Assembly: GCA_002428665.1 (NCBI GenBank)
Contig: DIXK01000019.1
Coordinates: 28,758 to 92,757 of the forward strand
DNA: 64,000 nucleotides
Direction: 5' to 3'
Origin: Verrucomicrobia subdivision 3 bacterium UBA6082
GTDB lineage: Bacteria > Verrucomicrobiota > Verrucomicrobiia > Limisphaerales > UBA8199
Both the position numbers and the translations under genes were made by a program. The notes under the pieces were generated by a model, which had not been told where the DNA came from, did no database searches, and saw only the letters and a program-made list of their open reading frames with translations. Below are positions 22,660-37,492 of the stretch, in pieces. Every line of letters starts with the position of its first letter. The first letter of the stretch is position 1.

Positions 22660-23151
22660 GGTACCGTCTTTTGAGCAACCCATGTACCAAGAGGGTTGCG
22701 GTCCAAGCCACGTGGAATCCCCATAAACCAACTCGGATAATTCACCTCTGTGGAAGTGGCGTCGTATCAAGCCCCACCCGCGACGACCGCCACCGAATTT
22801 TCCAGGCGAATTCCCGAAGAATATTGTCTGTCGCGGCTTGGGTGCCACCCTCATTTCAATTCGATCTGTCACATACACGTGAAACCGACCCGGAGTTGTC
22901 ACACGCATGCGACAATCGGCGCCGCTGGGACAATGCTGATTACATGCGAATCTATGGTGGACTTCCTGGCGATTTGCCGCGCTGCCAAATGCGGTGAGAA
23001 TCCGCAAGAAAGCAGGGGAGGGGTTTGAACGCTCACCCGGCTTGGCAGACAGGAAACTCGCGGGAGTCGTTATTCGGGGATGAGCATGCTTGCTTTGGCT
23101 GGGTTGGCCAGCATCATGACAGTTGGTGATGTGAAAAACCGGCTATTGATT

Positions 23152-24606: not shown

Positions 24607-24630
24607 TGTATGTTGGCGCACAATCTGTCC
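24607..24630 (+). repeat. left terminal inverted repeat of the element
   Basis: TGTATGTTGGCGCACAATCTGTCC, followed by further TGTCC copies at 24641 and 24648 and an inverted GGACC at 24727. Confidence 0.55.
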
Positions 24631-24767
24631 CGTTTTTTCATGTCCAATGTCCGAAAACCAAGGTAAAAGCTCTCAGGCGCCTGCTTTGGAGCTTTTTTAA
24701 AAACGCTCCAAAAAGCGTCTGTTTTCGGACCTAATCGGAACAGCCGGCGGATACCCTGATCTGCCTG

Positions 24768-25283
24768 CTATTGCCTGCTTGAAACGGCCTCTTTTTCCCC
24801 GGCCGTAAATTGGTTCAACTTGGCCCTAAGGGTTCGCTGTAACGCTGCCTTGTAGATGGCCAGGCCGTGCACGGTCTCGCCGCCCGGTGGCAGCACCCGA
24901 GCCTTAATGCCCTGGCAGTAGGAATCCGGGAATCCAAGGGAGGCCAACTGGCCTTCAATGGCCCGGATCTCCGCCTTCAACCCATGGTCAATGTAACGGT
25001 CCCTGCTAGTCTCGGCGCTTGTGTTTTTCTGTGACCAGAACCGTCTTTGCCGAAACACTGCAGAGGGCTTGCAGGGGGCCTGCACTTTGCCCAAATCGAC
25101 CCGGCGCCAGTAAATCGCCTCGAGGTAAGCCAGGCACCTATCCAGGTCCCGGTTGGTTAGCTTGGGATCTGTAGAAGACCTGCAGCCGGCCACAGCCCCT
25201 AGGGCGTCTCGATATTCGCCGTCCTCAAGCCCGGCCTCGCGCTGCGCTCGTTTTAACAGGATCTGTTGGGATCTGGTTAGCAT
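24768..25283 (-). CDS. GemA/gp16-like (DUF1018-like) Mu regulatory protein
   Basis: ILLKRAQREAGLEDGEYRDALGAVAGCRSS...DLDRCLAYLE and EIRAIEGQLASLG resemble Mu GemA/gp16-family proteins. The ATG at 25283 lies 5 nt after the ATPase stop. Confidence 0.5.
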   Translation of the reverse strand: MLTRSQQILLKRAQREAGLEDGEYRDALGAVAGCRSSTDPKLTNRDLDRCLAYLEAIYWRRVDLGKVQAPCKPSAVFRQRRFWSQKNTSAETSRDRYIDHGLKAEIRAIEGQLASLGFPDSYCQGIKARVLPPGGETVHGLAIYKAALQRTLRAKLNQFTAGEKEAVSSRQ

Positions 25284-25287
25284 GCGG

Positions 25288-26895
25288 TCACTGGGGCAAG
25301 AGTTGAGCCACTTCCCGAACGCCTTCCAGGTCATCATCCGAGGCTGGCTGAGCAGCCGGACGAGATCTCAAGGCAAATGGCGATGGCTCCTCGAGCTCTC
25401 CCATCGTCGGCGCAAGGTGCTCTACGTGTCGCGCCCGGCCGCTTCGCGGAGCTACGGCCGCAGCCAGAGCAGCATCGGATGGGATCACGCTGCCAACGAT
25501 GGCCCGGCGCAGGTCCTCTTCCTCAATCTGTGCCCGCCCGGCCTGGTTGGCTAGGTAGCGAGCGCGCCGCGCGGCCGTATCGATCGCGGCCAAATACTTT
25601 GCAGAGGCCTTAGCGTAAAGCACCAGCATCTTAATGGTTCGCCGGTCTCCTTCGGGCAATACGGACCTGGAAACGGCTTCGAGATCCTGATCCGAGAGCT
25701 TTTCTGGCAACTTCTGGTAGTGGCCCAGTCGCCCAGTAAATTGCTCGGATGCCCATCGCGTTTTGGCCTCCATCAGCTTCTGGGTCCTCATAAACTGGGG
25801 CGTAGTCACCAGAGCCACAGGCACCCCCATGTTGACCAGGGCGGTCATTAGCCAGTTCACCCGGCTGGGCAGGGACCTGGGGTCGATTAGGTTCGGCCAA
25901 AGGTAATGTGCTTCGTCCAAAACCAGCATCAGCCCGCCCCGCTGCAAAACATCCTCAATCCTGTCGCGCAGTTCAATCGCCTTACGATTGAGATTCACGG
26001 CCACGCCAAGGCTTTTGGCGATCGACCGGAAAAAACCAATTTCGTCATTCGTGCTCGGGACCTGCACATAGCGAGCTTGCCCTGGGTGCATCTCGCACCA
26101 GGCCTTGGCCGAGTGTGTCTTGCCCGTGCGGGCCAGCCCGTCGATCAGAACCATGCAACCACTCTGCAGTGCGTAGTCGAGCGTGTCGTAAACCTGTTTG
26201 CCGAGGGCTGTAACCACCGTGCGCTGCCGGCACTCCGCGATCTGCCCAGTCATGTATTCACGGAGCGTGCTGACTAGATCAGGGAAATACCACGGCCCGC
26301 CGACGATGGGCATTGATGGGTCCAGGCACAGCCTAGTCAAGTAGTCTAGCAGCCCCGAATCTGCCGCATTCCTGCAGCAGTCCAAAAAGACATCGCCGGG
26401 ATATGACGCCGGCCTGGTCGCGGCCTCGGCGTCGGCGATTTCATTCCTATGAATCGCAGCCTCAGCAATTCGCCTATCTTCAAGCAGGTAACTGTCACCC
26501 TCTGGGACTGCCGGCAAGGTGGCGATAGTCGCCGCCGAAAACTCGCCCCGAAGCAAAAATGACTCGGAGTCCGCATACGGAAGCTCATCTCGGATGGCCT
26601 TAACCCATTCGGCGCGAACCTGTCGACCGCGAGCAACCTTGAACCGTTGCATTGATGGGGTCTGGATTCGATCAGGGTAAGCCTCCACGAGCTGGCGGCA
26701 GAGTAACTGCAAGCCACCCTCAGCATGAGACCGCGCTTGGATAAACCAGATTAGCTCGCGCTCGCTGGGCGATTCCGGCAGCGCACACCGTTGAGCAACT
26801 AAGTTGGCCAGCAGCCCGCGTTGATACTCCAAGCTGCTGGCGTATCGTTCCTGTCGCAGTGGACCTCCGGTCTTAGCTGTTCGGGTGCTACTCAT
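25288..26895 (-). CDS. AAA+ transposition ATPase (MuB/TniB-like)
   Basis: Walker A GLARTGKTHS and Walker B LMLVLDEAHYL. Its start overlaps the transposase stop (ATGA). Confidence 0.8.
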   Translation of the reverse strand: MSSTRTAKTGGPLRQERYASSLEYQRGLLANLVAQRCALPESPSERELIWFIQARSHAEGGLQLLCRQLVEAYPDRIQTPSMQRFKVARGRQVRAEWVKAIRDELPYADSESFLLRGEFSAATIATLPAVPEGDSYLLEDRRIAEAAIHRNEIADAEAATRPASYPGDVFLDCCRNAADSGLLDYLTRLCLDPSMPIVGGPWYFPDLVSTLREYMTGQIAECRQRTVVTALGKQVYDTLDYALQSGCMVLIDGLARTGKTHSAKAWCEMHPGQARYVQVPSTNDEIGFFRSIAKSLGVAVNLNRKAIELRDRIEDVLQRGGLMLVLDEAHYLWPNLIDPRSLPSRVNWLMTALVNMGVPVALVTTPQFMRTQKLMEAKTRWASEQFTGRLGHYQKLPEKLSDQDLEAVSRSVLPEGDRRTIKMLVLYAKASAKYLAAIDTAARRARYLANQAGRAQIEEEDLRRAIVGSVIPSDAALAAAVAPRSGRARHVEHLAPTMGELEEPSPFALRSRPAAQPASDDDLEGVREVAQLLPQ

Positions 26896-29429
26896 GGCGT
26901 TGGCTCGCTTTCGCTGATTTGGTCCCCCGGCCCGTCCGAGTCCTTATCGGGGCTAAATAGATTGGCTATGTCACCGACGGCGAAAGGCTCAGGGCTTATA
27001 TCGTCCTCCGCTGACGGCTTCAGCATGCGATAGAGCTCGATCGCTGACTCCTGCTTTTCAGCGTCCCCCCGGTGAAATTCCAGGGCTGATTGCACGTCCT
27101 GCTCAGTTAAAGGCGTGCTGCGGATACGACGGAGCAGGGCCGCCTCCTGCCGGCGCCGATCGGCGGCTTGTTTCTTTTCCTCATTTAATCTTGATTGCAG
27201 CTCTTCTATCTCCTGGCCAAGCTTGACTGTCTCGGGAGTTGCGAAGACGCGCCTAAAATTAGGGTCGTGTTCCAATCGGAGCGCGCGGTAATAAGCCTTA
27301 GCGGGAGCATTATGTTGTGCAGCCCGCCTTAGTTCCTGGGATAGCAAATCCGGCGGGGCACCCAACCCTGGCACTTTTTGAGATTTCTCTACAATAAACG
27401 GGTTCTGCTGGTCCAAATCTGTAACCACGATCGAGTCAGGTATCTCTTGATCAAACCAGACCAGAACCTTCTGATTGACCAGCCATCCCGTTTTCTCGTT
27501 ACGATAAACACCACCGCCAAATGAACGCGGAAGCCGAATCCCGTTGCGCGTAACTCTCATCATGCTCCCATGATGTGACAGCTTGTAACGAAGCCAGGCA
27601 GGGAGTTTGGTCTGCGGATCGCTCGTTTTTTGCCGGTTTACAAATGCCGCGTCAGGGGACAGTCCCTCGCACAATTTGCCGTCTTGCGGGGTGGCGTTAT
27701 ACTTCGTGCAGATTTCATGCAAGCGCGACACCCATTGATTGGCGCTCAGGAATACATCGCTCGGATTCATCCGTCGCGCTTTAACAGCAAGTATAGCCTT
27801 CTGAACTCGCTCGAACTTGTCTTTACGCTCATCCCGACCAACGTAACCAGGGGTCGCCTCCATGAGGTCCTGAGCCGCCCCAATCACCCGCTCTACCAGC
27901 TTGACTCGCGCCGATCGGGCATGGATGAATTTCAGCCCAATATCACGAAAGCCTTTCTCTACTTCTGCGTTGGAAAAAGCAGTCCCATATGCCTTGCCCC
28001 CGGTAATGAGGCGAGAGGTTTCCCATATTCCGCCCTCAAAAACAAAGCCATATCTCGGCAAGCCGAATTCATCACAGGAGCGAGTCATCAACGTGCGGAT
28101 CGCACGGGCGTTGTAACTCCTGGACGAAAGCAAAATGAAGTCCAGAATTCTAGTAGACCTTAAGTCTATCATTATCAGGCACTGCCCCCTCATTAATGAA
28201 TACCACCCGTTCCCGTCCGGTTCATAATAGTAGACCGGTAATGTGACGTCGTCGGCCTGGTAAGCGTCGCCCGTGAAGACAGGCGACCAGTCGCGGTCAA
28301 TATAAGCACCGTTCAGTTTAGCTTGTTGGGGGCCGCGGTGAATGTTTTTGACAAGTCTGACCTTAGGCTGGACAAGGTCCCGAATCTTCCGGGGCACATG
28401 GGACTTGCTTCGGGGATTTGCGAGGTAATGCCCCGAAACCTCGGGGCCGAGCTTGTCCTTAACGTCCCGCCAGGCCTGAGAAACCCGGCTGCCAGTCTGG
28501 AAAACCGCATGGCCGACAATTCCATCCACGTCAGGCTTGGACAGATCTGGCGCTCTGAAAAACCCGGATTTATGCGGCCTTTGGTCTGTCACGGCCGACG
28601 GAATCCTCCCAGCCCGGACCCAGGCGGAGTATTTCCTGTCCCACTGTTTCCGCAACCCAGCGGGGCTGCCGGCGAGATAGTGGGAGGACTTCTCCAGGAA
28701 GGCCAGCAACCGACGCTTTTCCCGCTTCTGAGGCTTGCCGGCAGCGATCCCACGGTCAAACTCTTCGAACGCACTCACCCAGAGCATGGCCACTTCATCG
28801 CTCGATGGCTTACTCGGGTCCCTAAAGCTGGCGATACGCTTCTGTAGGGCCGGGATGGAAATGACCTGGCCGGTGGCGTTATCTGCGGCTTGAGTGCCGG
28901 CGTTATCGTCCAGGTAGATATCCAACCTTCCCCAATTCTCAACCCCAGCGTCCCTGGCTACCGTTCGATGAAAGAGACGGCGCCAGTGCCTGGCTGAAAT
29001 CGAAAACCCAAAGGCCTGCTTGTAGCCAGCCAGGCCGATGGCCTCGAAGTCCGCCTCCGAAATGCTTAGGTCATTAATCCGGGCGAGCGCAGGCGCTAAG
29101 GCTTTTTGTAGCATGGCTGCCTTCTCCTGGTGCCGGGGGCTGGCGTCCTTGAAGGCCACTGCCGGGTGCCAGGTCTGCTGCGGCGACAAGAGCAACTGCT
29201 CCGCGTTTCTGTAGCTGAGCTTGGCAGCCTGGCTGTTTAAACGCTCCTGCATCGCCGCCGGCAGCGCGCACAGATCCCAAGCGCTGGCCGGATTGCCGGA
29301 CACCACCACGACCCGGCCGGCGGGCGTGGATCGCAGCGCGGACAGCACCCAGCGCTTTGACAGGCCTAAGGCCAGCGCAATCTGCGCCGCAGTGAAGGAT
29401 TGAGTCGAGGTCTGGGGCTCAGAGGTCAT
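26892..29429 (-). CDS. DDE transposase, MuA/TnsB (rve-like) family
   Basis: N-terminal HTH (TAAQIALALGLSKRWVLSAL). Core motifs YQADDVTL, LIMIDLRSTRILDF, GLPRYGFVFEGGIWETS and ARVKLVERVIG parallel the Mu/Tn7 transposase catalytic regions. Confidence 0.8.
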   Translation of the reverse strand: MTSEPQTSTQSFTAAQIALALGLSKRWVLSALRSTPAGRVVVVSGNPASAWDLCALPAAMQERLNSQAAKLSYRNAEQLLLSPQQTWHPAVAFKDASPRHQEKAAMLQKALAPALARINDLSISEADFEAIGLAGYKQAFGFSISARHWRRLFHRTVARDAGVENWGRLDIYLDDNAGTQAADNATGQVISIPALQKRIASFRDPSKPSSDEVAMLWVSAFEEFDRGIAAGKPQKREKRRLLAFLEKSSHYLAGSPAGLRKQWDRKYSAWVRAGRIPSAVTDQRPHKSGFFRAPDLSKPDVDGIVGHAVFQTGSRVSQAWRDVKDKLGPEVSGHYLANPRSKSHVPRKIRDLVQPKVRLVKNIHRGPQQAKLNGAYIDRDWSPVFTGDAYQADDVTLPVYYYEPDGNGWYSLMRGQCLIMIDLRSTRILDFILLSSRSYNARAIRTLMTRSCDEFGLPRYGFVFEGGIWETSRLITGGKAYGTAFSNAEVEKGFRDIGLKFIHARSARVKLVERVIGAAQDLMEATPGYVGRDERKDKFERVQKAILAVKARRMNPSDVFLSANQWVSRLHEICTKYNATPQDGKLCEGLSPDAAFVNRQKTSDPQTKLPAWLRYKLSHHGSMMRVTRNGIRLPRSFGGGVYRNEKTGWLVNQKVLVWFDQEIPDSIVVTDLDQQNPFIVEKSQKVPGLGAPPDLLSQELRRAAQHNAPAKAYYRALRLEHDPNFRRVFATPETVKLGQEIEELQSRLNEEKKQAADRRRQEAALLRRIRSTPLTEQDVQSALEFHRGDAEKQESAIELYRMLKPSAEDDISPEPFAVGDIANLFSPDKDSDGPGDQISESEPTP

Positions 29430-29734
29430 GTTACTCTAAAAAGCAAAGCTGGCCGGTCCCCGATATTCGCCGCTCCTTCAAACGGCCGTTTCGGAAAGCG
29501 CCTTTCGGCAACCGGGCCGCCCCACAGCCCAGACCGACCAGCAAATTCTAAATTAATCCTCAGCGGGGATTCCGACCCCCGATTGCTACCCATTGCAAAA
29601 CGCAGGAAACCCATTGCAAAACGATTGCAGCCAAAAACCCCTAACTGGATACCCAGAAAACGTCCCAGGGCATCCTGGAGCGATTTCGCGGCTTGCCGCC
29701 AAGCCTGAGTTTTTGCAATCCAGGCGTGCATCAT
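29426..29734 (-). CDS. hypothetical 102-aa protein (or non-coding regulatory spacer)
   Basis: Supported only by ATGA start/stop overlaps with both neighbours. Contains the 15-bp direct repeats (peptide RFAMG x2). Third-position GC about 52 percent by my count. Confidence 0.3.
   Translation of the reverse strand: MMHAWIAKTQAWRQAAKSLQDALGRFLGIQLGVFGCNRFAMGFLRFAMGSNRGSESPLRINLEFAGRSGLWGGPVAERRFPKRPFEGAANIGDRPALLFRVT
29588..29623. repeat. two perfect 15-bp direct repeats, 21-bp period
   Basis: ACCCATTGCAAAACG at 29588-29602 and 29609-29623, flanked by CGATTGC at 29580 and 29622. About 160-200 bp upstream of the transposase ATG. Confidence 0.9.
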
Positions 29735-30219
29735 ACCTCGCAGCCTTCTTTGGTTTGGTTTCCAAGCAGCCACCGGGTCACTGCCGCTTGGCGGTCTACC
29801 TCGGCATTCAGTTCCGCGAGCGTGGGCATTGCCAGAACTCCGCCGGCGGTTGGCCACCACAGACGCCACACGTCCTCGCGGGTATCGATCCAGGCAAGCT
29901 GGGCGCAACCTGCCAGCCCAGCGCTAGCCAGGGCGCGCCGAGTCGTTTCCAGCCCGGCGCCTACGTTCTCACACCGGATAAAAACGATTGCGCGGTTTAA
30001 TTCGAGCCCTGCCGTGCATCTTTGCAAGCTAACTCCGTCCGCCCGGAATGATGCCTGCAGGAGCGCGCTTAGCACAATCGTGCCGATCCGGTTGAAAGAC
30101 GGGTAGCAGAGCGCCGGCGCCTCGGCTGGGTCCACTGAGATTTGCAAACGAACCAAAATGTTGAACTCGGTCAGTCCCGCGTTCTGCGAGTTCGGTGAAG
30201 GTTGGGGCTCGCGGTTCAT
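29731..30219 (-). CDS. hypothetical protein (162 aa)
   Basis: ORF linked to its neighbours by ATGA overlaps at both ends; no recognisable motif. Confidence 0.5.
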   Translation of the reverse strand: MNREPQPSPNSQNAGLTEFNILVRLQISVDPAEAPALCYPSFNRIGTIVLSALLQASFRADGVSLQRCTAGLELNRAIVFIRCENVGAGLETTRRALASAGLAGCAQLAWIDTREDVWRLWWPTAGGVLAMPTLAELNAEVDRQAAVTRWLLGNQTKEGCEV

Positions 30220-31538
30220 TTACTTCGAGTGTTGGCGATGAGCTGCTCTGCGCGCGCAATCCGCTGCAGGATGTCTTGCTGCTGGGCACTTAATCGCAGC
30301 AGACCCTGAGCGAATCGAGTATCGGTCTGGTTACCGGATTCGATTTGACTGAGAATCTGCTGTGCCAGGTTGGCGCGCTGTTGGTTGGTGGTAGCCAGGG
30401 CGCCTAGCCAGCCAACGGCGGAATCAGTTGCGGCGCCCGATTGGCGCACGGCCGATTCCTGACGCATGGCGGCTTCCTCACCAGGGAGAGACATATCCAG
30501 CCCAAAGGCCTCGACCGCAGCGCTGGCAGCGCCACTGGTCAGACTGTCGCGCCTGGCTCTGGCGGCATCCCGGCCGGCCCGACGTTCACGAAAGCTGTTG
30601 TATCGGCCGATGATGGCCTGGCTGTCGGCTATTCCGCCCTCTTCGCGGCGACGGGCTTCTTCCCAACCAGTGAAAGGACCCCAACGGTAATACGCCTTGG
30701 GTTGATGGAGCCAATACTTGAACCCTCCGCTCTGCATCTCCCCCAACATCCCCAAATATCCCTGCCGGCTAGCGATGTCCTTTTGGGCAAGCTCAGCTTG
30801 CTTGGCCAACTCGGCTTCGGTCTTATCATCGTCGGCTGAGCTTCCCAGGCGGATCTCGCCCGCCATACCCATTTTCCGACGAGCCTCAAGGATGAGGTTG
30901 GCCCGCCTTCCGTATTTCGCGGACAGTTCGCGTTGCGCGGCAATCTCCTTAATATTCAAACCGGCCTGGCCGTAGCGGTCCTCCAGGGCTTGCCTTGCGA
31001 CTGCATAATCTCCCTCACCCATGCTGTCTCGCTGCGCGTCAAGCCTAGCCATGTCCAGGGCACGCTGCTGCTTCAGAATCTCCATCTGAGCGTCAGCTTG
31101 CCGTTTAATGGAAGCAGCCAGTCGATCGCTGTCGGCTGTTGCTGATTTGTAGTGCTCGGAGGCCTGGCTAATCGCAAGACCGAACTCCCGCCAAGCGTTA
31201 GCGGCAGCCGTCACTCGCCCAACAAAATCAATCTTGATGTTGGGCAGTTCGAACCCAGCCAGGCTGCGCGTGAGTTCATCCACTCGCTTTCTCCAGAGTG
31301 CGAAAGCTGCCACAATTGCCAGGACCGATGCGGTGATGGGGTTGACCATCATGCTCGCCGCTTGGGCCAGCAGCGGGAACTGGAGCGAGAGCCCGCGGAA
31401 AGCGTCCTTGAGTTGGGTCGAGGCCTTGGCCGTCTTGCCGACGGCCGCCTCCACCTTGCCCAACGACTCGGCAGCGCGCTGCGCTCCAGACGTCTCGGCC
31501 TGGGTCCGTATCAGGATGTCAACCTGTTCATCGGCCAT
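30216..31538 (-). CDS. coiled-coil protein with central hydrophobic segments (tape-measure/scaffold-like)
   Basis: About 440 aa from the ATG at 31538 (MADEQVD). Hydrophobic stretch LQFPLLAQAASMMVNPITASVLAIVAAFALW, then long Ala/Arg/Gln/Glu-rich heptad-like regions. Confidence 0.55.
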   Translation of the reverse strand: MADEQVDILIRTQAETSGAQRAAESLGKVEAAVGKTAKASTQLKDAFRGLSLQFPLLAQAASMMVNPITASVLAIVAAFALWRKRVDELTRSLAGFELPNIKIDFVGRVTAAANAWREFGLAISQASEHYKSATADSDRLAASIKRQADAQMEILKQQRALDMARLDAQRDSMGEGDYAVARQALEDRYGQAGLNIKEIAAQRELSAKYGRRANLILEARRKMGMAGEIRLGSSADDDKTEAELAKQAELAQKDIASRQGYLGMLGEMQSGGFKYWLHQPKAYYRWGPFTGWEEARRREEGGIADSQAIIGRYNSFRERRAGRDAARARRDSLTSGAASAAVEAFGLDMSLPGEEAAMRQESAVRQSGAATDSAVGWLGALATTNQQRANLAQQILSQIESGNQTDTRFAQGLLRLSAQQQDILQRIARAEQLIANTRSK

Positions 31539-31542
31539 ACTG

Positions 31543-31830
31543 CTAGATCTTCGGCTTTCTTCCGACCCTGCCGACTTTGGCCTCCAATAGCCCACTGAAC
31601 CCTCTCAGCGCGTAAGCCCGGTCCCATCGGCGCAGTGAAGATTTCGAAGCGGCAAAGCGAAATTCGCGGGCAGTGCGAGCAAGAGCTGCTTCGCTGCCCA
31701 CGCCATCGCGGATTAGGTGCGAAAGCAATCGGACGGCTTGTTCGCGCATTAACGCGCGGCCTAGGGCTGGAGGCGAAAACTTGTCGCGCGCTCGATTGGG
31801 GCGAGCGCTTAGATTATTGGTGTTGGTCAT
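31543..31830 (-). CDS. small HTH DNA-binding protein (IS3/IS481 OrfA-like HTH)
   Basis: 95 aa from the ATG at 31830. ...AALARTAREFRFAASKSSLRRWDRAYALRGFSGLLEAKVGRVGRKPK resembles transposase-type N-terminal HTH domains. Confidence 0.55.
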   Translation of the reverse strand: MTNTNNLSARPNRARDKFSPPALGRALMREQAVRLLSHLIRDGVGSEAALARTAREFRFAASKSSLRRWDRAYALRGFSGLLEAKVGRVGRKPKI

Positions 31831-32028
31831 ATACTGAAGGAAAAGAATGCACCCTACCCGGACGATACGGGCAGGGTGCCAGGGAGAGGTAAAATCCACT
31901 GCTTGAGCAGGTGAGCAAAGCGGCGGCAAAACAACTCCCCCAACCAGCGCCCGACGGGGAAACAAACGACCCCTGCGGCTGCTGGTTAAATTTTTGTTTC
32001 ATGAATAATCCTATGCCTCGGAACGCAC

Positions 32029-32601
32029 TCAGTCGTAACGCACCGTTATTGCGTCCAGGCTACAGGCGCTCGTTCCGTCGAGCACCACGCGCACAGGCCG
32101 GCCACGATTGCCGCTGTAGATGGCCTCGCCCTGGTAGTTAACCGTGGCTGCAGCGCATTTGAGCGTGGTTGCGGCGCTCATCTTGTAAACCTCATCACCA
32201 GGCAGGGTCACAACGCCATTCGTGGCGACCAGGGTAACGTTGGTTGTGTTCGCGAACGCGGCAATAACCGCGCTCGTGTGCGTGCCGTCGGCATTCACGA
32301 TCACCAGGACGTCATCGGCCGCGAGGCCGTTGGTGCTGGTGACGCTTATCGTCCCGCCGCTGGCGTTGCTGGAGCCAATCACATAGGGAGTGGTCCCTGT
32401 GCGAATGGAGAGCACGCTCGCGGCCTTGTCGCTCGTTGCAATAGCCCCGACTAGCCGAATCTGCGCTTGCGGATTGGCAGGGAAATGCACTTCGCACGAT
32501 GCAGTGCCGGATGCGTTCTTAGTCACGTAATCGGCGCCTGCGGCCGGGAGGGCGACAATTGCCGCCAAAGCCAGGCCAAGAAGATTTCTAGTTCTGTTCA
32601 T
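32029..32601 (-). CDS. secreted beta-rich hypothetical protein
   Basis: Signal peptide MNRTRNLLGLALAAIVALPAAGA. Thr/Val/Ala/Gly-rich mature part. Lies immediately downstream of the capsid gene. Confidence 0.6.
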   Translation of the reverse strand: MNRTRNLLGLALAAIVALPAAGADYVTKNASGTASCEVHFPANPQAQIRLVGAIATSDKAASVLSIRTGTTPYVIGSSNASGGTISVTSTNGLAADDVLVIVNADGTHTSAVIAAFANTTNVTLVATNGVVTLPGDEVYKMSAATTLKCAAATVNYQGEAIYSGNRGRPVRVVLDGTSACSLDAITVRYD

Positions 32602-32642
32602 ATCGATGTTCTATTTCTCGATTGCGGTTGATTCGTTACGGC

Positions 32643-34028
32643 TTATGCCGCCGGCGTTTTGAGCGCAGAGGCTGCTTCCAGGCTCGCGTAATCGAAGTCG
32701 ACTAACTCCAGGAACCGAGTCGCCAGCTGGTCATACACAAAATAGACATGCTCGCTGGTATCGATGCGCGGCGTGCCCCGTTGGCCCATCCACCAAAAGC
32801 GCAGATTGCCAAAGACTGCCAGGTTCTTGCTAGCTGCAGCCGCTGTGCTGTAGGGTTGCAGAACCTCGGTCCATGTGATCGGGAACCCATCAAGGCGAGC
32901 GGTGCCGTCGGGCGTATAAACAAAGGCGTAAGGATCGCCTGCGGTGTTGAACGCACGCAACCGCGATTCCCACGACTGATTGAGGAAATACCGCGCACCC
33001 GAAAGTGCCCCGGTGGAAACCAAGCGCCTCATTTCACGGAAGTCTTCCAAATCGGCATCGCTGGGCTTGGTGTTGCCTGCAGCAAGCTCAATGACTTTAG
33101 CGTTCTCAGATGCGATCTGACACACGCCTTTGATTTCGCCATACGTGGCAGTGCCGTCTGCCAGGAAGCCCCAGGTATCTTCAGCACGAGCGAACTCGAT
33201 TGCCCCATAGCGAGCCAGGAATTGGCCCATAGCCACGGCGGAGCCAGTGTCAATCTCGGTAGGAACAATCACAATGCCACCAAGCTTGTGAGGCTCAAGG
33301 CTAGCAAAGGTTAAGGTCGGTTTCTTCTCGAGCACCTCGCCGCTCATATCGATAGCCCCGAAGGCAGGCCGCGTTCCCATCCGGGGCGGTTTGGCAACGC
33401 CCCCGGCCATGGGGTAGATAGTCATGGCCCTGCGGACAACGCCGAACTCCGCGATGAGTTCGACGAGCTCTGAACCGTAAATCTCCGGCAGCGGCACTTC
33501 GGTAGTGCTCAGCGCTCGAGTCGAGCCCACCAAGCTGCGGGCCTCGGCGAGCAAAGAGTCTCGGTGACTCGCGGTTGGAATGAAAGACTCCAGCTTGCCT
33601 GAGCGTTCCGCATGCAGCACCACGGACGCGGTTAGCGACCTTGCGCATTCGTCGCTCACCTGGCCCGGCCGGCGCGCAGTGAAACTGCCTGTCAGTCGAG
33701 CTCGTCGCAGCGAGACCAAGTGATCTGCCTGCTCGTTTGCAACCTGTTCCAACTTATCGGTCCGGCTCTTCAGGTTTCTCGTGTCTGTAGCCAACTCGGC
33801 GACACCAGAGAGAACGCGCTTCTGGAACTCGCCCCGATCCAATGGCTCATCGTCTCCTTCAGCCCGAGAGCGGCTGGCTGCAAGCCCAACTGGGAAAGCC
33901 GCGAGCACGCCGGCTTCTGGGATGCTGTAAATGACAGCGATCAGAGCCAGCACTGACAAGGTTACCAAGCCCAGCACCAGGACCCACGAGGGGACACTGT
34001 GCTGCCGTTCGTTAAATCGTTCATTCAT
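32643..34028 (-). CDS. HK97-family phage major capsid protein with N-terminal TM helix and coiled-coil (delta-like) region
   Basis: LPEIYGSELVELIAEFGVVRRAMTIYPM...LEKKPTLTFASLEPHKLGGIVIVPTEI...FLARYGAIEFARAEDTWGFLADGTATYGEIKG follows the Phage_capsid (HK97) consensus. N-terminal hydrophobic segment VPSWVLVLGLVTLSVLALIAVIY. ATG at 34028. Confidence 0.75.
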   Translation of the reverse strand: MNERFNERQHSVPSWVLVLGLVTLSVLALIAVIYSIPEAGVLAAFPVGLAASRSRAEGDDEPLDRGEFQKRVLSGVAELATDTRNLKSRTDKLEQVANEQADHLVSLRRARLTGSFTARRPGQVSDECARSLTASVVLHAERSGKLESFIPTASHRDSLLAEARSLVGSTRALSTTEVPLPEIYGSELVELIAEFGVVRRAMTIYPMAGGVAKPPRMGTRPAFGAIDMSGEVLEKKPTLTFASLEPHKLGGIVIVPTEIDTGSAVAMGQFLARYGAIEFARAEDTWGFLADGTATYGEIKGVCQIASENAKVIELAAGNTKPSDADLEDFREMRRLVSTGALSGARYFLNQSWESRLRAFNTAGDPYAFVYTPDGTARLDGFPITWTEVLQPYSTAAAASKNLAVFGNLRFWWMGQRGTPRIDTSEHVYFVYDQLATRFLELVDFDYASLEAASALKTPAA

Positions 34029-34047
34029 ACTAATTAATCTCGAAAAT

Positions 34048-34320
34048 TTAGATTCTGTTCCCCCGGACCGGAGCTGGGTATTCGCCAAGGGCGACCCCAA
34101 AAGGCCGGGTCAAAATCTGGTTGTTCCAGCCCTCTAAATCGGGCGCGCCGCTGGTCGATAGGCATAGGCGCGCATAAGGCCTGATCGACTGTCTCCGATC
34201 CATTCTGCCGGATTCTAACTGCACTAACAGGTGTGATGCCTGGCCATCCACCGGCGGCTGCCCAGGCTGCAAGCCTGCCGGATCTCTCACACCAAAATTC
34301 ACATTTGCCGCAACAATCAT
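34048..34320 (-). CDS. hypothetical 90-aa protein
   Basis: Fills the gap between the Ner-like gene (stop 34328) and the capsid ATG (34028) exactly; there is no other support. Confidence 0.3.
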   Translation of the reverse strand: MIVAANVNFGVRDPAGLQPGQPPVDGQASHLLVQLESGRMDRRQSIRPYARLCLSTSGAPDLEGWNNQILTRPFGVALGEYPAPVRGNRI

Positions 34321-34327
34321 GTCGCAA

Positions 34328-34714
34328 TTACTGCCCAGCCTGCTGGGTGCTGGCCTCGGCAGTCATTTCTTTGAGCTCCTGATTGCTTTTTTGCATGGTC
34401 AAAACAATCTTTCGCAGCCGGGCAAGTCGATAGTTCGCGGACTGGATCATAGCCGCGTTACCCCTCTTGCAGTCCTCAATGGCCCCCAGGATTTTTTCCT
34501 GGAACTCTAGCGAATACGGATTTGGCTGTTTCATAATTTCACTGATCTCGCGATACCCTGCCAGGAGCTTTGGGTCTTGACGCCTGCCGAGCAGGGTAAA
34601 CCGAAGGTGATTGTATGAGCACCCAAGGATCACAGCTGCATCCGCCAGCCCCGGCCACCGTCTTCGATTATGGCACACACTATGTTTTGCCAATTCTTTA
34701 TTGCAACGCGTCAT
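34328..34714 (-). CDS. Ner/Cro-like small HTH regulator
   Basis: WPGLADAAVILGCSYNHLRFTLLGRR resembles Ner/Nlp-type HTH domains. Divergent from the repressor gene. ATG at 34714 (ORF open to 34753). Confidence 0.5.
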   Translation of the reverse strand: MTRCNKELAKHSVCHNRRRWPGLADAAVILGCSYNHLRFTLLGRRQDPKLLAGYREISEIMKQPNPYSLEFQEKILGAIEDCKRGNAAMIQSANYRLARLRKIVLTMQKSNQELKEMTAEASTQQAGQ

Positions 34715-34798
34715 TGTGGGTAATAGGAAACACTCTTCCCGCTCTCCCGTCAAGGATTTCTTTGTTTTTTAATTCGACGGGTTAACATCGGCTTTTCG

Positions 34799-35620
34799 AT
34801 GCCTAGAAAGAACCCAGTACCAGCGCGCGACGTCGAAATTGGACGAAGGCTTGCGACGTTCCGTAAAGCCCGCAGATGCCCACGATCTTATTTGGCCGCG
34901 CAGACCGGAATGGATAGCTCCGCAATTGCGAGAATCGAACAAGGCCGGGTCCCTTTAAAATATCATCAAGCCAGGGAGATCCTGCGCTTCTTCAAGCTAA
35001 ACCCCATGTGGGTAGCCACCGGAATGGGATTAAAACAAGCATATTGGGAGCTTCCAAATTTCGAAAAAAGTGCGGAAAACGATGACTTTTCAAAGGTCAT
35101 GGAGTATTTTGGTGAGAGAATTTTTCCCCAGTATTCCTCGGATGTGATAAGGGAGGCCGAGCAGAGGTCTTCGGAACGGGAGCCAGCCATTGAACTGATA
35201 ACACTAGCTGCGCGAGAGTGGTGCGGAATGGTCAACGAGTCCTCATTCAATAGCTTTTTCAGTTCCTTGATAGACTACGGTTACTTCCTGGCGGAGAAAT
35301 ACCAACAAAACGCCATTCCCGACAATGCTCTAAGCAATCCAACCCCCCCTAGACCCCGCCCAGAGAATGAAATCAAAAAAAAGGACTTGCACGATGTTAA
35401 CGCAAAAGTTAATGATGGAGACGTGAACCAAATGGCCAGTCTGATAAACCGACTCCTGGTAGCAACCCAAGCTCGAGGCAAGAAATCTGAACTTGCGAGG
35501 TTCTTGGGCCTTCCGTTGGCTAGTGTTTCTCAGTGGCTGTCTGGCAAGCGATCCCCGTCCGGGGAAACCACGCTTAAGCTGCTGGAATGGGTTGAACGGC
35601 GAGAGCGTGAAACCAAATAA
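34799..35620 (+). CDS. repressor-like protein with two XRE-type HTH domains
   Basis: N-terminal IGRRLATFRKARRCPRSYLAAQTGMDSSAIARIEQGR and C-terminal KKSELARFLGLPLASVSQWLSGKRSPSGETTLKLLEW. Confidence 0.75.
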   Translation: MPRKNPVPARDVEIGRRLATFRKARRCPRSYLAAQTGMDSSAIARIEQGRVPLKYHQAREILRFFKLNPMWVATGMGLKQAYWELPNFEKSAENDDFSKVMEYFGERIFPQYSSDVIREAEQRSSEREPAIELITLAAREWCGMVNESSFNSFFSSLIDYGYFLAEKYQQNAIPDNALSNPTPPRPRPENEIKKKDLHDVNAKVNDGDVNQMASLINRLLVATQARGKKSELARFLGLPLASVSQWLSGKRSPSGETTLKLLEWVERRERETK

Positions 35621-35650
35621 AAACCCCAGCGATGCTGAAACATCGCAGGG

Positions 35651-36484
35651 GTGAATCGACCCAGGAGAAAGCACCGCATGCAAAGCAATACTAACAACCG
35701 GGCCAACGGCCACAGTAATAAAAAACGCACACGAAAGCAAACCGGACGTTTACTGGCCGATGATACCCAATCCTGCCAGCCCGCATCCATCTTCAACAAT
35801 GATGATCAGCTCAAAAAGTTGAGTGTCGATGAAATGGCCGAGCTTTGTGCAAAACATGAATCCAAATTCGGCCAGACGCCGGATTTTAATGATCTTGCAG
35901 ATATCTATGTCTATGATCTATCTGACGCCCAGATACTGGACTCGGTGTCCCTCCTGGTGGATGAGTTTGCGGACGATCTGAGCCAGCTGGTAAAGAAAAC
36001 CCTGGTGATCATGCCCGGCCGATTCAGAATCTGGGCTATGCACATGCTGTCATCTGTAGCCGCAGCGCGCGAAGCTGCCCGGCGTTGCCGGTGGTATGGG
36101 CTCAAGTCCGCGCCTGGTCGCATGGCAGAAAAAGAGGGTCATGGCCGCGAGCCGATGCTCCTGGATCTCTACGGATTCAGTGGGCGCGTGGCCTTTAGCG
36201 ATGGGGATCTGCTATCTCACATCTGTGATAATGTGTATGGCTGGCGCACTGAAATTCAAGAAAAGCTCCTTAGCCAGTATCACGGGCAGAGGCGCAGCAG
36301 AATGCTCGAGCTTCTCAGTCTTTGCGAGAAGGTTTGCCTGCGCGACGGAACGGCTGATGAGGCACTGTTAAGTGAAATGCGGTGCGGTTCCACTCCGACA
36401 GTCAACCTTGTCATGGACGATCGTAGTGATCGCTTTCTGCAGGCCATTAATACCCACCGGACCCCGGAAAAAGTAAGCCGGTAA
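35651..36484 (+). CDS. hypothetical protein (basic N-terminus)
   Basis: 277-aa ORF in the AT-richer segment with no recognisable motif. Alternative ATG start at 35678. Confidence 0.5.
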   Translation: MNRPRRKHRMQSNTNNRANGHSNKKRTRKQTGRLLADDTQSCQPASIFNNDDQLKKLSVDEMAELCAKHESKFGQTPDFNDLADIYVYDLSDAQILDSVSLLVDEFADDLSQLVKKTLVIMPGRFRIWAMHMLSSVAAAREAARRCRWYGLKSAPGRMAEKEGHGREPMLLDLYGFSGRVAFSDGDLLSHICDNVYGWRTEIQEKLLSQYHGQRRSRMLELLSLCEKVCLRDGTADEALLSEMRCGSTPTVNLVMDDRSDRFLQAINTHRTPEKVSR

Positions 36485-36497
36485 CCAGGTCTTCGCC

Positions 36498-36953
36498 GTG
36501 GACGCAAGCAGTAACCAATCGCCAGAGCCAACCCTGGAGACCATTACTGACGTCCAGGAACAGCTGATTGCGGCTATCGCCGGCCTGGACTCCGACCAGA
36601 GCCGGCGCGCTGAGGTCATTGGTAGGCTGCGCAGCCTCCGAAATATAGTAATATCAACCCTTGTCTGGATTCACGTGAAGGACGGTTTCAAAGAGGAAAT
36701 CGATCTCAAATTCGTTGGCGAGCCGGAAGGCCCCCATCGGCAAGTAACCAACTCCGACGCGGTCGTTTACCTGCGGGAGCTCCGGAGCATCGTTGAGGGT
36801 GCCCTGGACCTATCCAAGGAGGCCCCGCGCGATGGACTCGAGCAAGCCTTCGCCAGTGACCACGAGGTAGACGCGCAAGCAGTGAAAGACGCCCTATTCG
36901 ATAGCCGCGTTCGGCGCCTCCGCCAGGCGGTCGACAACTTCCGAGGCAATTAG
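36498..36953 (+). CDS. hypothetical protein (151 aa)
   Basis: GTG-initiated ORF 13 nt after the previous stop, followed by a rho-independent terminator. Confidence 0.5.
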   Translation: MDASSNQSPEPTLETITDVQEQLIAAIAGLDSDQSRRAEVIGRLRSLRNIVISTLVWIHVKDGFKEEIDLKFVGEPEGPHRQVTNSDAVVYLRELRSIVEGALDLSKEAPRDGLEQAFASDHEVDAQAVKDALFDSRVRRLRQAVDNFRGN

Positions 36954-36972
36954 GCCTACCCCACTCCCTAAC

Positions 36973-37009
36973 CGCCGGCTTGGCTAACCCCCTGGCCGGC
37001 GTCTTTTTT
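36973..37009 (+). terminator. rho-independent terminator
   Basis: CGCCGG-17 nt loop-CCGGCG followed by TCTTTTTT. Confidence 0.65.
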
Positions 37010-37075
37010 GCCGGTGGTGCCCCAGATCAGCGGCCGGGATCTCGCCCCCCTAGCCAGGCAACCCCCTTGTAAGCC

Positions 37076-37093
37076 GATTGCGCCAAGCTTGCA
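37076..37093 (-). repeat. third, internal end-like sequence
   Basis: The reverse complement TGCAAGCTTGGCGCAATC shares TG and the TTGGCGCA..ATC core with the left tip. Confidence 0.4.
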
Positions 37094-37345
37094 CCCCCTC
37101 AGAAATCGCCCTTCAGGGCAACTCAACCAGCCCCAAAACCCCCGTTTTTCGCTTCACACCTCACACCCCCCCCACCGCCACCGACAATTTGTCCACTTTG
37201 CATGTCCAACCCAATATTTACAGGGGTTTGCTCGCTGTCTGGTCTGGACATCCATTTTGGACAGATTATGAAAACTGGACAACTTATGGATTTCGACGCC
37301 TTTAATAACGTCGCTGTAAGCCATTGATTTTAAGGCCAATAAACC

Positions 37346-37365
37346 CTAATCAAGGCTAATCAAGG
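37346..37365 (+). repeat. perfect tandem 10-mer x2
   Basis: CTAATCAAGG CTAATCAAGG inside the right end. CCTAATC also occurs at 24730 in the left end. Confidence 0.9.
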
Positions 37366-37378
37366 AAAACCCCATTTC

Positions 37379-37402
37379 GGACAATTTGTCAGCCAAGGGA
37401 CA
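37379..37402 (-). repeat. right terminal inverted repeat of the element
   Basis: The reverse complement TGTCCCTTGGCTGACAAATTGTCC matches the left tip at 17 of 24 ungapped positions. Additional GGACA copies at 37246, 37259 and 37277. Confidence 0.55.
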
Positions 37403-37415
37403 ACGAATCGAAGAC

Positions 37416-37492
37416 TGGTACGCGAGGCGGGGGTCGAACCCACAACCTTCGGCTCCGGAGGCCGACGCTCTATCCAATTGAGCTACTCGCGC
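37416..37492 (-). tRNA. tRNA-Arg (anticodon CCG)
   Basis: The reverse complement GCGCGAGTAGCTCAATTGGATAGAGCGTCGGCCTCCGGAGCCGAAGGTTGTGGGTTCGACCCCCGCCTCGCGTACCA folds as a cloverleaf. Anticodon loop is CTCCGGA and CCA is encoded. Confidence 0.95.

Follow-up and report, generated by a model that had tools for sequence, protein, structure and literature searches.

The capsid gene and the element that carries it

The window analysed here, that is, the whole stretch of 64,000 nt taken from contig DIXK01000019.1 of Verrucomicrobia subdivision 3 bacterium UBA6082, contains a 12,796-bp element (24607-37402 in the numbering of the window, used throughout) in which the gene for a 461-aa major capsid protein precursor is followed by a gene for a 190-aa protein and, further downstream on the same strand, by genes for a transposase and a transposition ATPase. 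Beyond the element the DNA is chromosomal, a multihaem cytochrome gene lying on the ATPase side and a MoxR/DUF58/transglutaminase operon on the opposite one. The central observation is that the gene for a capsid precursor of phage type has a stable place on a tRNA-homing element of the Mu/Tn7 type, which has no other virion genes: no homolog of a portal, terminase, S78 protease, connector or tail protein was found in the window (best tblastn E-values 0.2-1). An original prediction made on this DNA had drawn attention to the capsid gene and its neighbour and had asked whether a protease and portal lay elsewhere, which the same search answers in the negative for the 64 kb; the transposase genes, the element boundaries and the tRNA target had gone unremarked there. 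The features that carry the argument are the following.

32643-34028, minus strand: HK97-fold major capsid protein precursor, 461 aa (Pfam, PHROG, AlphaFold2 [AF2], Foldseek)
33930-33986, minus strand: transmembrane (TM)-grade hydrophobic helix WVLVLGLVTLSVLALIAVI, capsid codons 15-33 (insertion energy, AF2 helix 14-34)
33690-33836, minus strand: long delta-like helix, capsid codons 65-113, start EPLDRGEFQKRVLSGVAEL (AF2, capsid comparison)
32029-32601, minus strand: all-beta protein of 190 aa, Sec-type signal peptide at its start (MNRTRNLLGLALAAIVALPAAGA/DY; 62-member family, AF2)
31849-31879, minus strand: terminator-like hairpin, 12-bp stem with 9 G-C pairs, the strongest such site in the element
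26892-29429, minus strand: distant MuA/TnsB-like transposase, 845 aa (PHROG 310 'transposase', E = 4.6e-26)
25288-26895, minus strand: MuB/TnsC-like AAA+ transposition ATPase, 535 aa (AAA_22, TniB, PHROG 296, PADLOC)
34799-35620, plus strand: repressor-like (CI-like) protein, 273 aa, with two helix-turn-helix domains (HTH_31, E = 1.1e-11; HTH_3, E = 1.6e-11)
24607-24660, no strand: ATPase-side terminus TGTATGTTGGCGCACAATCTGTCC, then a tandem ATGTCCAATGTCCGAAAAC motif (alignment of family ends)
37180-37402, no strand: tRNA-side terminus ...GGACAATTTGTCAGCCAAGGGACA-3', with five GGACA copies and GCCTTGATTAG repeats inside (motif clustering, family alignment)
37416-37492, minus strand: tRNA-Arg(CCG), apparent target; 13 bp separate its 3' end from the element (ARAGORN)

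The capsid precursor and its signal-peptide neighbour

The capsid open reading frame (ORF) is 461 aa long from its ATG and 485 aa from a TTG at 34100, and 20 nt separate the ATG from the end, at 34048, of the 90-aa ORF upstream. Pfam PF05065 Phage_capsid matches aa 208-478 of the longer form with 63.8 bits (cut-off 24.2; E = 2.2e-17), the match to PHROG 10 'major head protein' has E = 2.2e-20, and the protein retains all residues that are invariant in its family. In the AF2 model, made with 68 homologs as input (mean predicted local distance difference test [pLDDT] 84.5), a lone helix at residues 14-34 is followed by a disordered linker (35-64), a 49-residue helix (65-113), helices at 126-167 and the body. 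Foldseek aligned this body over ~280-300 columns with probability 1.0 to many virion capsids of the HK97 fold, the best match being the capsid of the gene transfer agent (GTA) RcGTA (6tb9, E = 5e-14); further matches included actinophages, T5, SaPI1, the capsid-forming phage-inducible chromosomal island (cf-PICI) EcCI2 and HK97 itself, with encapsulins weaker (~3e-9). Judged from these profile matches and the predicted structure, the protein is a genuine phage-type HK97 protein, and the original prediction of an ORF with an HK97 body has been borne out.

The predicted N-terminal membrane helix was likewise recovered. Residues 15-33 have a summed apparent free energy of insertion (dG_app) of ~ -3.4 kcal/mol, and a second hydrophobic stretch, at residues 39-53, scores +5.6 and would not span a membrane. 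The concern that the upstream TTG might remove the hydrophobic segment from the product has been settled, the segment being present from either candidate start. A scaffolding-like region had also been proposed, as a coiled coil of about 120 aa; its helical nature stood, while the coiled coil gave way in the model to the long helix 65-113 (the start of which is also written EPLDRGEFQKRVLSGV) and the helices at 126-167. Ahead of the delta-like helix the precursor has an extra module of ~64 residues, in which the TM-grade helix is joined to a disordered linker that is acidic or Gly-rich. An in-frame TTG occurs at codon 63 (33842-33862), with AGGAG 11 nt upstream, at the start of the conserved delta-like block. 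A conserved internal start that would give a TM-less isoform was also considered, and was unsupported at the DNA level.

The Sec signal peptide claimed for the 190-aa neighbour was confirmed by inspection, with a basic n-region, a hydrophobic core and an AGA/DY cleavage motif with small residues at -3 and -1 and no lipobox Cys, and nearly all of its 62 homologs have, again by inspection, the same tripartite signal. The AF2 model of the protein (pLDDT 86) consists entirely of beta strands, and a search for structural relatives gave no fold match with a TM-score above 0.4. Going by its N-terminus, the protein is most likely a truly exported phage accessory protein and not a capsid decoration. 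Since the strong terminator-like hairpin lies beyond the end of the 190-aa gene, the two genes look like a discrete cassette. A 140-aa ORF at 31543-31965 is doubtful as a gene because it overlaps this hairpin. The same region is called differently in three assemblies of the same DNA and is probably intergenic.

Termini and apparent tRNA target

The termini were located from the clustering of TGTCC and GGACA motifs and by comparison with loci L005 and L072 (L numbers denote loci), and then by alignment of 25 family ends. At the ATPase-side end, TGTCC occurs four times in ~90 bp, as against 0.8 per kb in the window; this terminus matches the other one, inverted, at 17 of 24 positions and aligns with 24 other family ends, and the same tandem motif is found at the equivalent end of L005. 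At the family ends, the 3' end of an RNA gene is followed by 12-16 nt of spacer that are not conserved and then by an invariant T, in most cases part of TG, with which a conserved block ending ...AAGTTGTCC begins; the ATPase-side ends of the window element and of L072 align to this same block as inverted repeats. The window element is intact at both termini and in all of its ORFs.

Of 46 related loci scanned, at least 25 have a tRNA or transfer-messenger RNA (tmRNA) gene next to their repressor-side boundary, on the same strand and always in one orientation, and most of the loci without one have too little upstream sequence. The RNAs are tRNAs for Val, Arg, Met, Leu, Gly, Glu and SeC, and tmRNA, and the 22 aligned relatives with a complete tRNA or tmRNA call show the same geometry as the window element. 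The RNA-adjacent loci are L009, L030, L032, L033, L078, L079, L087, L090-L092, L099, L110, L111, L113, L115, L124, L127, L129, L130, L134, L137, L138 and L145. The contigs of L005 (12,943 bp) and L072 (12,574 bp) both end within 12-230 bp of the element termini. The L005 element was assembled six times as 10-20-kb contigs, as would be expected if its flanks were heterogeneous (multiple insertion sites or packaged DNA).

Transposition, regulatory and other genes

The ATPase gene lies directly downstream of the transposase gene, and its product matches AAA_22 (E = 2.4e-11), TniB (22.7 bits, cut-off 22.4), PHROG 296 'DNA transposition protein' (E = 1.4e-14) and PADLOC TnsC_V-K (E = 9.4e-8). The transposase gave no match in the PDB or in 50,697 phage genomes. 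The Mu-transpos_C domain is matched weakly in 15 of 36 members of its family; the window protein scores E = 0.018 over aa 625-680, which is below the cut-off, and may be of either the TnsB or the MuA kind. No protein of the element has a Pfam or NCBIfam match to TnsA, TniQ/TnsD or a CRISPR component. The repressor gene is divergent from the capsid/transposase operon, at a distance of 45 bp, and homologous divergent repressors are present in L005, L030 and L032. The GC content is 0.506 across 34001-36000, which covers the repressor and the divergent promoter region, as compared to 0.57-0.60 elsewhere. The remaining genes of the element are listed below.

24768-25337, minus strand: GemA-like protein (weak match), 189 aa, last gene of the element (Pfam GemA, E = 0.002, below cut-off; PHROG 286, E = 3.6e-5)
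29426-29734, minus strand: 102-aa ORF, start and stop overlapping its neighbours (translation; called as a gene in L008)
29731-30219, minus strand: 162-aa protein (a gene of similar size precedes the transposase in relatives)
30216-31538, minus strand: helical protein, 440 aa (459 aa from a GTG at 31595), with one hydrophobic segment; conserved and element-specific
34048-34320, minus strand: 90-aa ORF (translation)
34328-34753, minus strand: 141-aa protein, at the head of the leftward operon (L005 has a 31% identical homolog in the same place)
35651-36953, plus strand: two genes, of 277 aa and 151 aa, downstream of the repressor (no family match)

A homolog 48% identical to the GemA-like protein follows MuB in L021, and the 162-aa protein matched no family in Pfam, PHROG, NCBIfam or PADLOC. 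The 440/459-aa protein has a 32% identical homolog at the same position in L005 and belongs to a family of 254 representative clusters, none of them annotated; Pfam, PHROGs, NCBIfam, PADLOC, exhaustive HMMER and PDB profile searches returned this unannotated family and coiled-coil noise only. Viral contigs searched with this protein and with the transposase yielded no relatives. The N-terminal ~140 aa of the corresponding 525-aa protein of L005 (6444-6870) resemble (32% identity, E = 4e-12) the beginning of a 542-aa gene located after a putative tape-measure gene in a complete phage (L046, 18381-18845); the N-terminal domain that makes this connection is missing from the 459-aa protein of the window. 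On the ATPase side, the neighbouring chromosomal gene of note (19801-23007) encodes a 1068-aa multihaem c-type cytochrome, MtrC/MtrF-like and with fibronectin type III domains, and an unannotated 505-aa ORF separates it from the element.

Capsid relatives in complete phages

The capsid has 669 detectable homologs of ~50-60% identity, almost all of them from Verrucomicrobiota, and among deposited phage genomes none is closer than 20-24% identity, so the phage group to which it belongs is an uncultured one. The gene order TerL (large terminase), portal, S78 protease, capsid, connector is found in 36 of 36 IMG/VR loci and in ~16 of 21 genome loci, with the protease and portal identities supported by Pfam. 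These orthologous complete phages are Mu-like prophages, and a gene of the 190-aa family, if present, lies between capsid and connector, as it does in 7 of the 36 IMG/VR loci. The absence of a protease noted in the original prediction is thus a property of the element and its surroundings and does not extend to the system as a whole, since the same samples contain a complete phage of this capsid family that has protease, portal and terminase.

A TM-grade 19-mer occurs within the first 120 aa in 42 of 120 capsid homologs and in the body of none, which indicates that the segment is not there by chance. Two architectures were seen: in one, the TM segment is followed by a P-K/E-x-x-A-G turn, a second hydrophobic stretch and an acidic or Gly-rich linker, and in the other a hydrophobic hairpin is fused directly to '...APLALTEEQVKEF'. 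TM-bearing precursors are encoded by most compact elements and by about a fifth of the complete phages of the family (11 of 53 capsids, the segment being N-terminal to the delta-like region), which weakens the view that such a protein would be atypical for a virion. As far as its sequences tell, a TM-grade N-terminal segment is a trait of the family. The 190-family gene goes with TM-bearing capsids (10 of 14, as compared to 12 of 54; Fisher p ~0.001, phylogeny uncorrected). Two Verrucomicrobiota contigs from metagenome-assembled genomes (MAGs), L012 (9085-11167) and L014 (9060-11131), combine an S78 protease with a TM-bearing capsid but have no MuA-like gene and, in the 9 kb upstream, neither TerL nor portal; these may be another minimal island of head genes.

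The element family

The transposase family comprises 68 clusters in the protein database, and 156 metagenome-contig loci were detected, of which 80 were fetched. Members share a skeleton of a repressor on one side and, following it, small genes, a 440-704-aa protein, a ~160-aa protein, transposase and ATPase, with housekeeping genes around. A capsid of the present family lies upstream of the transposase in 12 of the 80 loci; 5 of these 12 also have a 190-family gene, 3 also have S78, and one has portal, S78 and capsid. No terminase (TerL) was found in any of the 80. The S78+capsid variants are flanked by housekeeping genes, and two of them are also compact. The fullest head module seen beside this transposase family is on the 6.6-kb contig L074 (26-6584), where a portal (Pfam, 133 bits) and a 171-aa gene are followed by S78, a short capsid of 366 aa without the TM segment, a 97-aa gene and the transposase. 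In L077, L079, L080, L113, L139 and L142 an S78 protease lies ~5 kb upstream of the transposase with no capsid of this family, and these loci may carry a different capsid lineage.

Gene order is the same in L005 as in the window, the capsids being 62% identical but the 141-aa, 459-aa, MuA, MuB and repressor proteins only 29-35%. The capsids of compact elements form clades of their own, i.e. (window, L005), (L030, L106, L111, L123), (L071, L072, L076, L081) and (L073, L074), which points to long-term retention of a working gene and argues against a remnant of a recent deletion. Nine of the 15 elements with reliable termini measure 12.3-13.15 kb, and related complete-phage contigs measure 35.6-36.6 kb, giving a ratio of element to phage of ~0.35, which is that of P4 to P2 and of SaPI1 to 80alpha.

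Candidate helper phages

The three data sources of the window element also contain a complete Mu-like prophage (L001-L003), which encodes Mu gp27, TerL, a portal-MuF fusion, a 231-aa S78-like protease, a TM-bearing capsid, the 190-aa gene, connectors and a tail. Its 190-aa protein, encoded after the capsid in L001, is 84.7% identical to that of the window, and the two capsids are 58% identical overall. Over 20 alignment columns where the delta-like helix begins (EPLDRGEFQKRVL.GV.EL), L001 is 85% identical to the window capsid, as against 15-50% in neighbouring blocks, and L005, the closest overall relative of the window capsid, reaches only ~25% there. In HK97 the delta domain recruits the protease (Duda et al. 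2013, as cited in PMC4351075). Recent recombination between element and phage was considered as the source of the similarity of the 190-aa proteins and was rejected, nucleotide identity being only 66-89% in the 190-aa gene and 45-69% in the capsid gene.

The transposase of L001-L003 belongs to a different lineage, one that the search for homologs of the element transposase did not reach, and the element is therefore not a deletion derivative of this phage. A second pairing was found within one MAG, in which a compact element (L021) and a complete phage (L025) are each other's best match for both capsid (60%) and protease (70%). An attempt to compare hosts by tetranucleotide similarity gave 0.82-0.93 for all Verrucomicrobiota loci and no discrimination. 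L001 also encodes, just before the terminase (5015-5398), a protein with an Acb2/Tad1 hairpin domain, of the anti-CBASS/Thoeris sponge family.

A proposed transposon-based satellite and its alternatives

The reading that we favour, at about an even chance, is that the element is a helper-dependent, transposon-based phage satellite, in effect a natural 'mini-Mu' with a capsid gene of its own. Features by which satellites are recognised were found together here, that is, an incomplete virion set with separate genes for regulation and mobilisation, and a genome far below phage size that varies within a narrow range. Upon derepression, the leftward operon would express the capsid-190 cassette together with the transposition genes, and the element would amplify by transposition. 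Protease, portal, terminase and tail could be borrowed from a co-resident complete phage of the same capsid family, and the heads that take up the element would consist, in whole or in part, of its own capsid protein. Such heads would probably be small, since the element has about one third of the length of the ~36-kb phage genomes. Among the suggestions of the original prediction, that of a protein redirecting capsid size comes closest to the evidence, the gene being part of a 12.8-kb transposable element without other virion genes. The TM helix and linker lie upstream of the delta-like helix, with which the S78 protease would be expected to remove them in complete phages; being removed in this way, the TM helix would most likely act as a transient anchor during assembly, possibly to the membrane, and be absent from the finished particle.

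Several points weigh against this satellite reading. Most members of the family have no recognisable head gene, so that carriage of a capsid is optional and satellite life may not be the basic mode of the family. The same size clustering is seen in capsid-less members, and the size constraint is thus not tied to possession of a capsid. The transposase is a distant relative, probably of DDE type, and its designation as Mu-type draws on PHROG profiles and on sub-threshold Pfam matches. No target-site duplication was found at the ends of the window element, and no empty site, with the left flank joined to the tRNA flank, was matched in the metagenomes. The helper link is circumstantial, resting on shared samples or a shared MAG and not on one cell, and the associations of compact versus complete and of 190-aa gene versus TM segment ignore phylogeny. 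Tethering of the N-terminus to a membrane would fit poorly with delta domains, which in a closed prohead point inwards. Furthermore, induction, packaging and transfer are steps that we infer for an element known here from its sequence. Finally, cargo on Tn7-like transposons is often defensive, which favours a role in interference.

This last role, which the original prediction had raised in the form of a superinfection-exclusion decoy, is the best-surviving alternative, and we regard it as fairly unlikely. The capsid, with or without the 190-aa protein, would poison the head assembly of related infecting phages, e.g. by giving defective or mis-sized proheads, and the element itself would stay unpackaged. 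Besides the frequency of defence cargo on Tn7-like transposons, several observations fit such a decoy: instead of head genes, most of the family has other cargo that is unannotated, the capsid gene sits in a repressor-controlled early operon and not in a late one, and the start of its delta-like helix closely mimics that of the co-resident phage capsid. A pure decoy would leave unexplained, however, the variants with protease and capsid or with portal, protease and capsid, as well as the tight clustering of sizes at 12.3-13.15 kb, and the PADLOC defence models match no gene of the element except the transposition ATPase. The two readings also overlap, in that known satellites both interfere and get packaged.

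It is unlikely that the main product lacks the TM segment, translation starting mostly at the TTG of codon 63 and the long form being a minor regulatory isoform. The AGGAG ahead of that codon would suit such a start, at the point where the delta-like block begins; a Met comes right after the Gly-rich or acidic linker in 8 of ~17 'type A' homologs, and homologs of ~406 aa begin at the equivalent position. On the other hand, L001 has no in-frame start there and other loci have no Shine-Dalgarno-like motif before the Met, most genes of the element likewise lack an obvious Shine-Dalgarno sequence, and the ORF across the TM segment and its hydrophobicity have been kept across dozens of divergent homologs.

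A decaying remnant, in which the capsid and 190-aa genes would have been left from a Mu-like prophage after loss of its late genes and would have no current function, appears decidedly unlikely. The head genes do adjoin the transposition genes, an order unseen in Mu, the lack of a target-site duplication is what a rearrangement might leave, and the fragments of the head module differ between family members. Decay is hard to square, though, with the compact gene order kept between elements whose other proteins are only 29-35% identical, with the separate clades of compact-element capsids, with the invariant residues and confident fold of the window capsid, with intact ORFs and termini, and with the other transposase lineage of the complete phage from the same samples.

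The remaining suggestion, a non-viral HK97 shell serving the host as an encapsulin-like or membrane compartment or as a GTA-like particle, with the TM anchor and the 190-aa partner as parts of it, is very improbable: the TM-grade helix, the absence of protease and portal in cis, the RcGTA capsid as best structural match and the presence of encapsulins among the fold matches would fit it, but the closest relatives are orthologs in the head modules of complete tailed phages, many virion capsids rank above encapsulins in Foldseek, the gene is on a mobile element and not at a fixed chromosomal locus, the 64-kb window holds no cargo protein, no Linocin_M18/encapsulin Pfam match and no GTA-like cluster, and the cleavable export signal of the 190-aa protein would send it to a different compartment.

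Returning to the satellite reading, a wider and more doubtful version of it, offered tentatively, is that these are the first transposon-based satellites, i.e. a ~12.7-kb Mu/Tn7-type family of Verrucomicrobiota whose members would target tRNA and tmRNA genes with no recognisable TniQ/TnsD, multiply by transposition, and use their own HK97 capsid protein to make or reshape small heads, the precursor being TM-tethered to the membrane through a module that the helper protease would later remove. In a full-text literature search of incomplete coverage, no description was found of Mu/Tn7-type elements with capsid genes, of transposon-based satellites or of TM-bearing HK97 precursors. If the proposal is correct, a satellite built on a Mu/Tn7-type transposition module would represent a new route to phage parasitism, linking transposable phages and targeted transposons, and prohead assembly in an HK97-type phage lineage would be membrane-templated. 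TM-bearing HK97 precursors in any case pose a testable question, that of where and how proheads assemble. The precise homing of the family (12-16 bp, one orientation, at least 8 RNA genes) with an A/B-type core only and no TniQ/TnsD detected moreover suggests an unknown target selector, with possible use in genome engineering.

Comparison with known systems

Like cf-PICIs, P4, the SaPIs (Staphylococcus aureus pathogenicity islands) and other PICIs, and the PLEs (PICI-like elements), the element is small (~1/3 of a phage genome) and has its own repressor and its own genes for replication or mobilisation. It also resembles satellites in its incomplete virion set, which includes an HK97 capsid, and in the gradient of head-module content across its family, and the capsids of cf-PICI EcCI2 and SaPI1 are among the structural matches to the window capsid. 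To our knowledge, all described satellite families integrate by means of tyrosine or serine recombinases, whereas the present element uses a putative DDE transposase with an AAA+ ATPase. cf-PICIs have a fuller head set (portal, protease, adaptors, small terminase), as compared to a capsid and a secreted protein only in the window element, and, unlike in cf-PICIs and other satellites, helper dependence and packaging are proposed here for an element known from its genes.

With Mu the element shares an A-B-type pair of transposase and ATPase, a divergent CI-like repressor, a GemA-like gene and TG...CA termini with internal repeats; Mu gp27 and a portal-MuF fusion also occur in the complete phages related to it. 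A helper replicates and packages mini-Mu elements in which the ends and the A and B genes have been retained; unlike these laboratory constructs, the present element is a natural one with a capsid gene in its early operon. Mu inserts almost at random, in contrast to the present family, which is found 12-16 bp from tRNA or tmRNA genes in one orientation. No 5-bp duplication as in Mu was seen, complete head, tail and lysis modules are absent, and the transposase is too distant for a sequence match to MuA structures.

A constant, short spacing on the downstream side of a tRNA gene and a single orientation are also found in the tRNA-homing Tn7-like transposons and CRISPR-associated transposons (CASTs; types V-K, I-B2 and I-D), and the TG(T)-terminated ends with internal repeat arrays and the match of the ATPase to TnsC/TniB are further likenesses. 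For such elements homing 30-33 nt downstream of a tRNA has been reported, with MuB placed as the sister clade of TnsC (PMC10293859; for tRNA-homing Tn7-like and CAST elements see also bioRxiv 10.1101/2021.02.06.429022). The present family differs from them in its shorter spacer (12-16 nt), in having no TnsA, TniQ/TnsD or CRISPR component detected, and in its phage-type repressor, GemA-like gene and cargo of phage head genes.

From encapsulin systems the element is set apart by the lack of an encapsulin Pfam match, by neighbours that are a secreted protein and transposition genes, and by its mobile context. The capsid itself is closest to the HK97 gp5 type (PF05065), with which it shares the predicted HK97 fold, a helical scaffolding-like region at the N-terminus and, in its complete relatives, an S78 gene immediately upstream, and from which it differs by the additional TM and linker module of ~64 residues placed before the delta-like helix.

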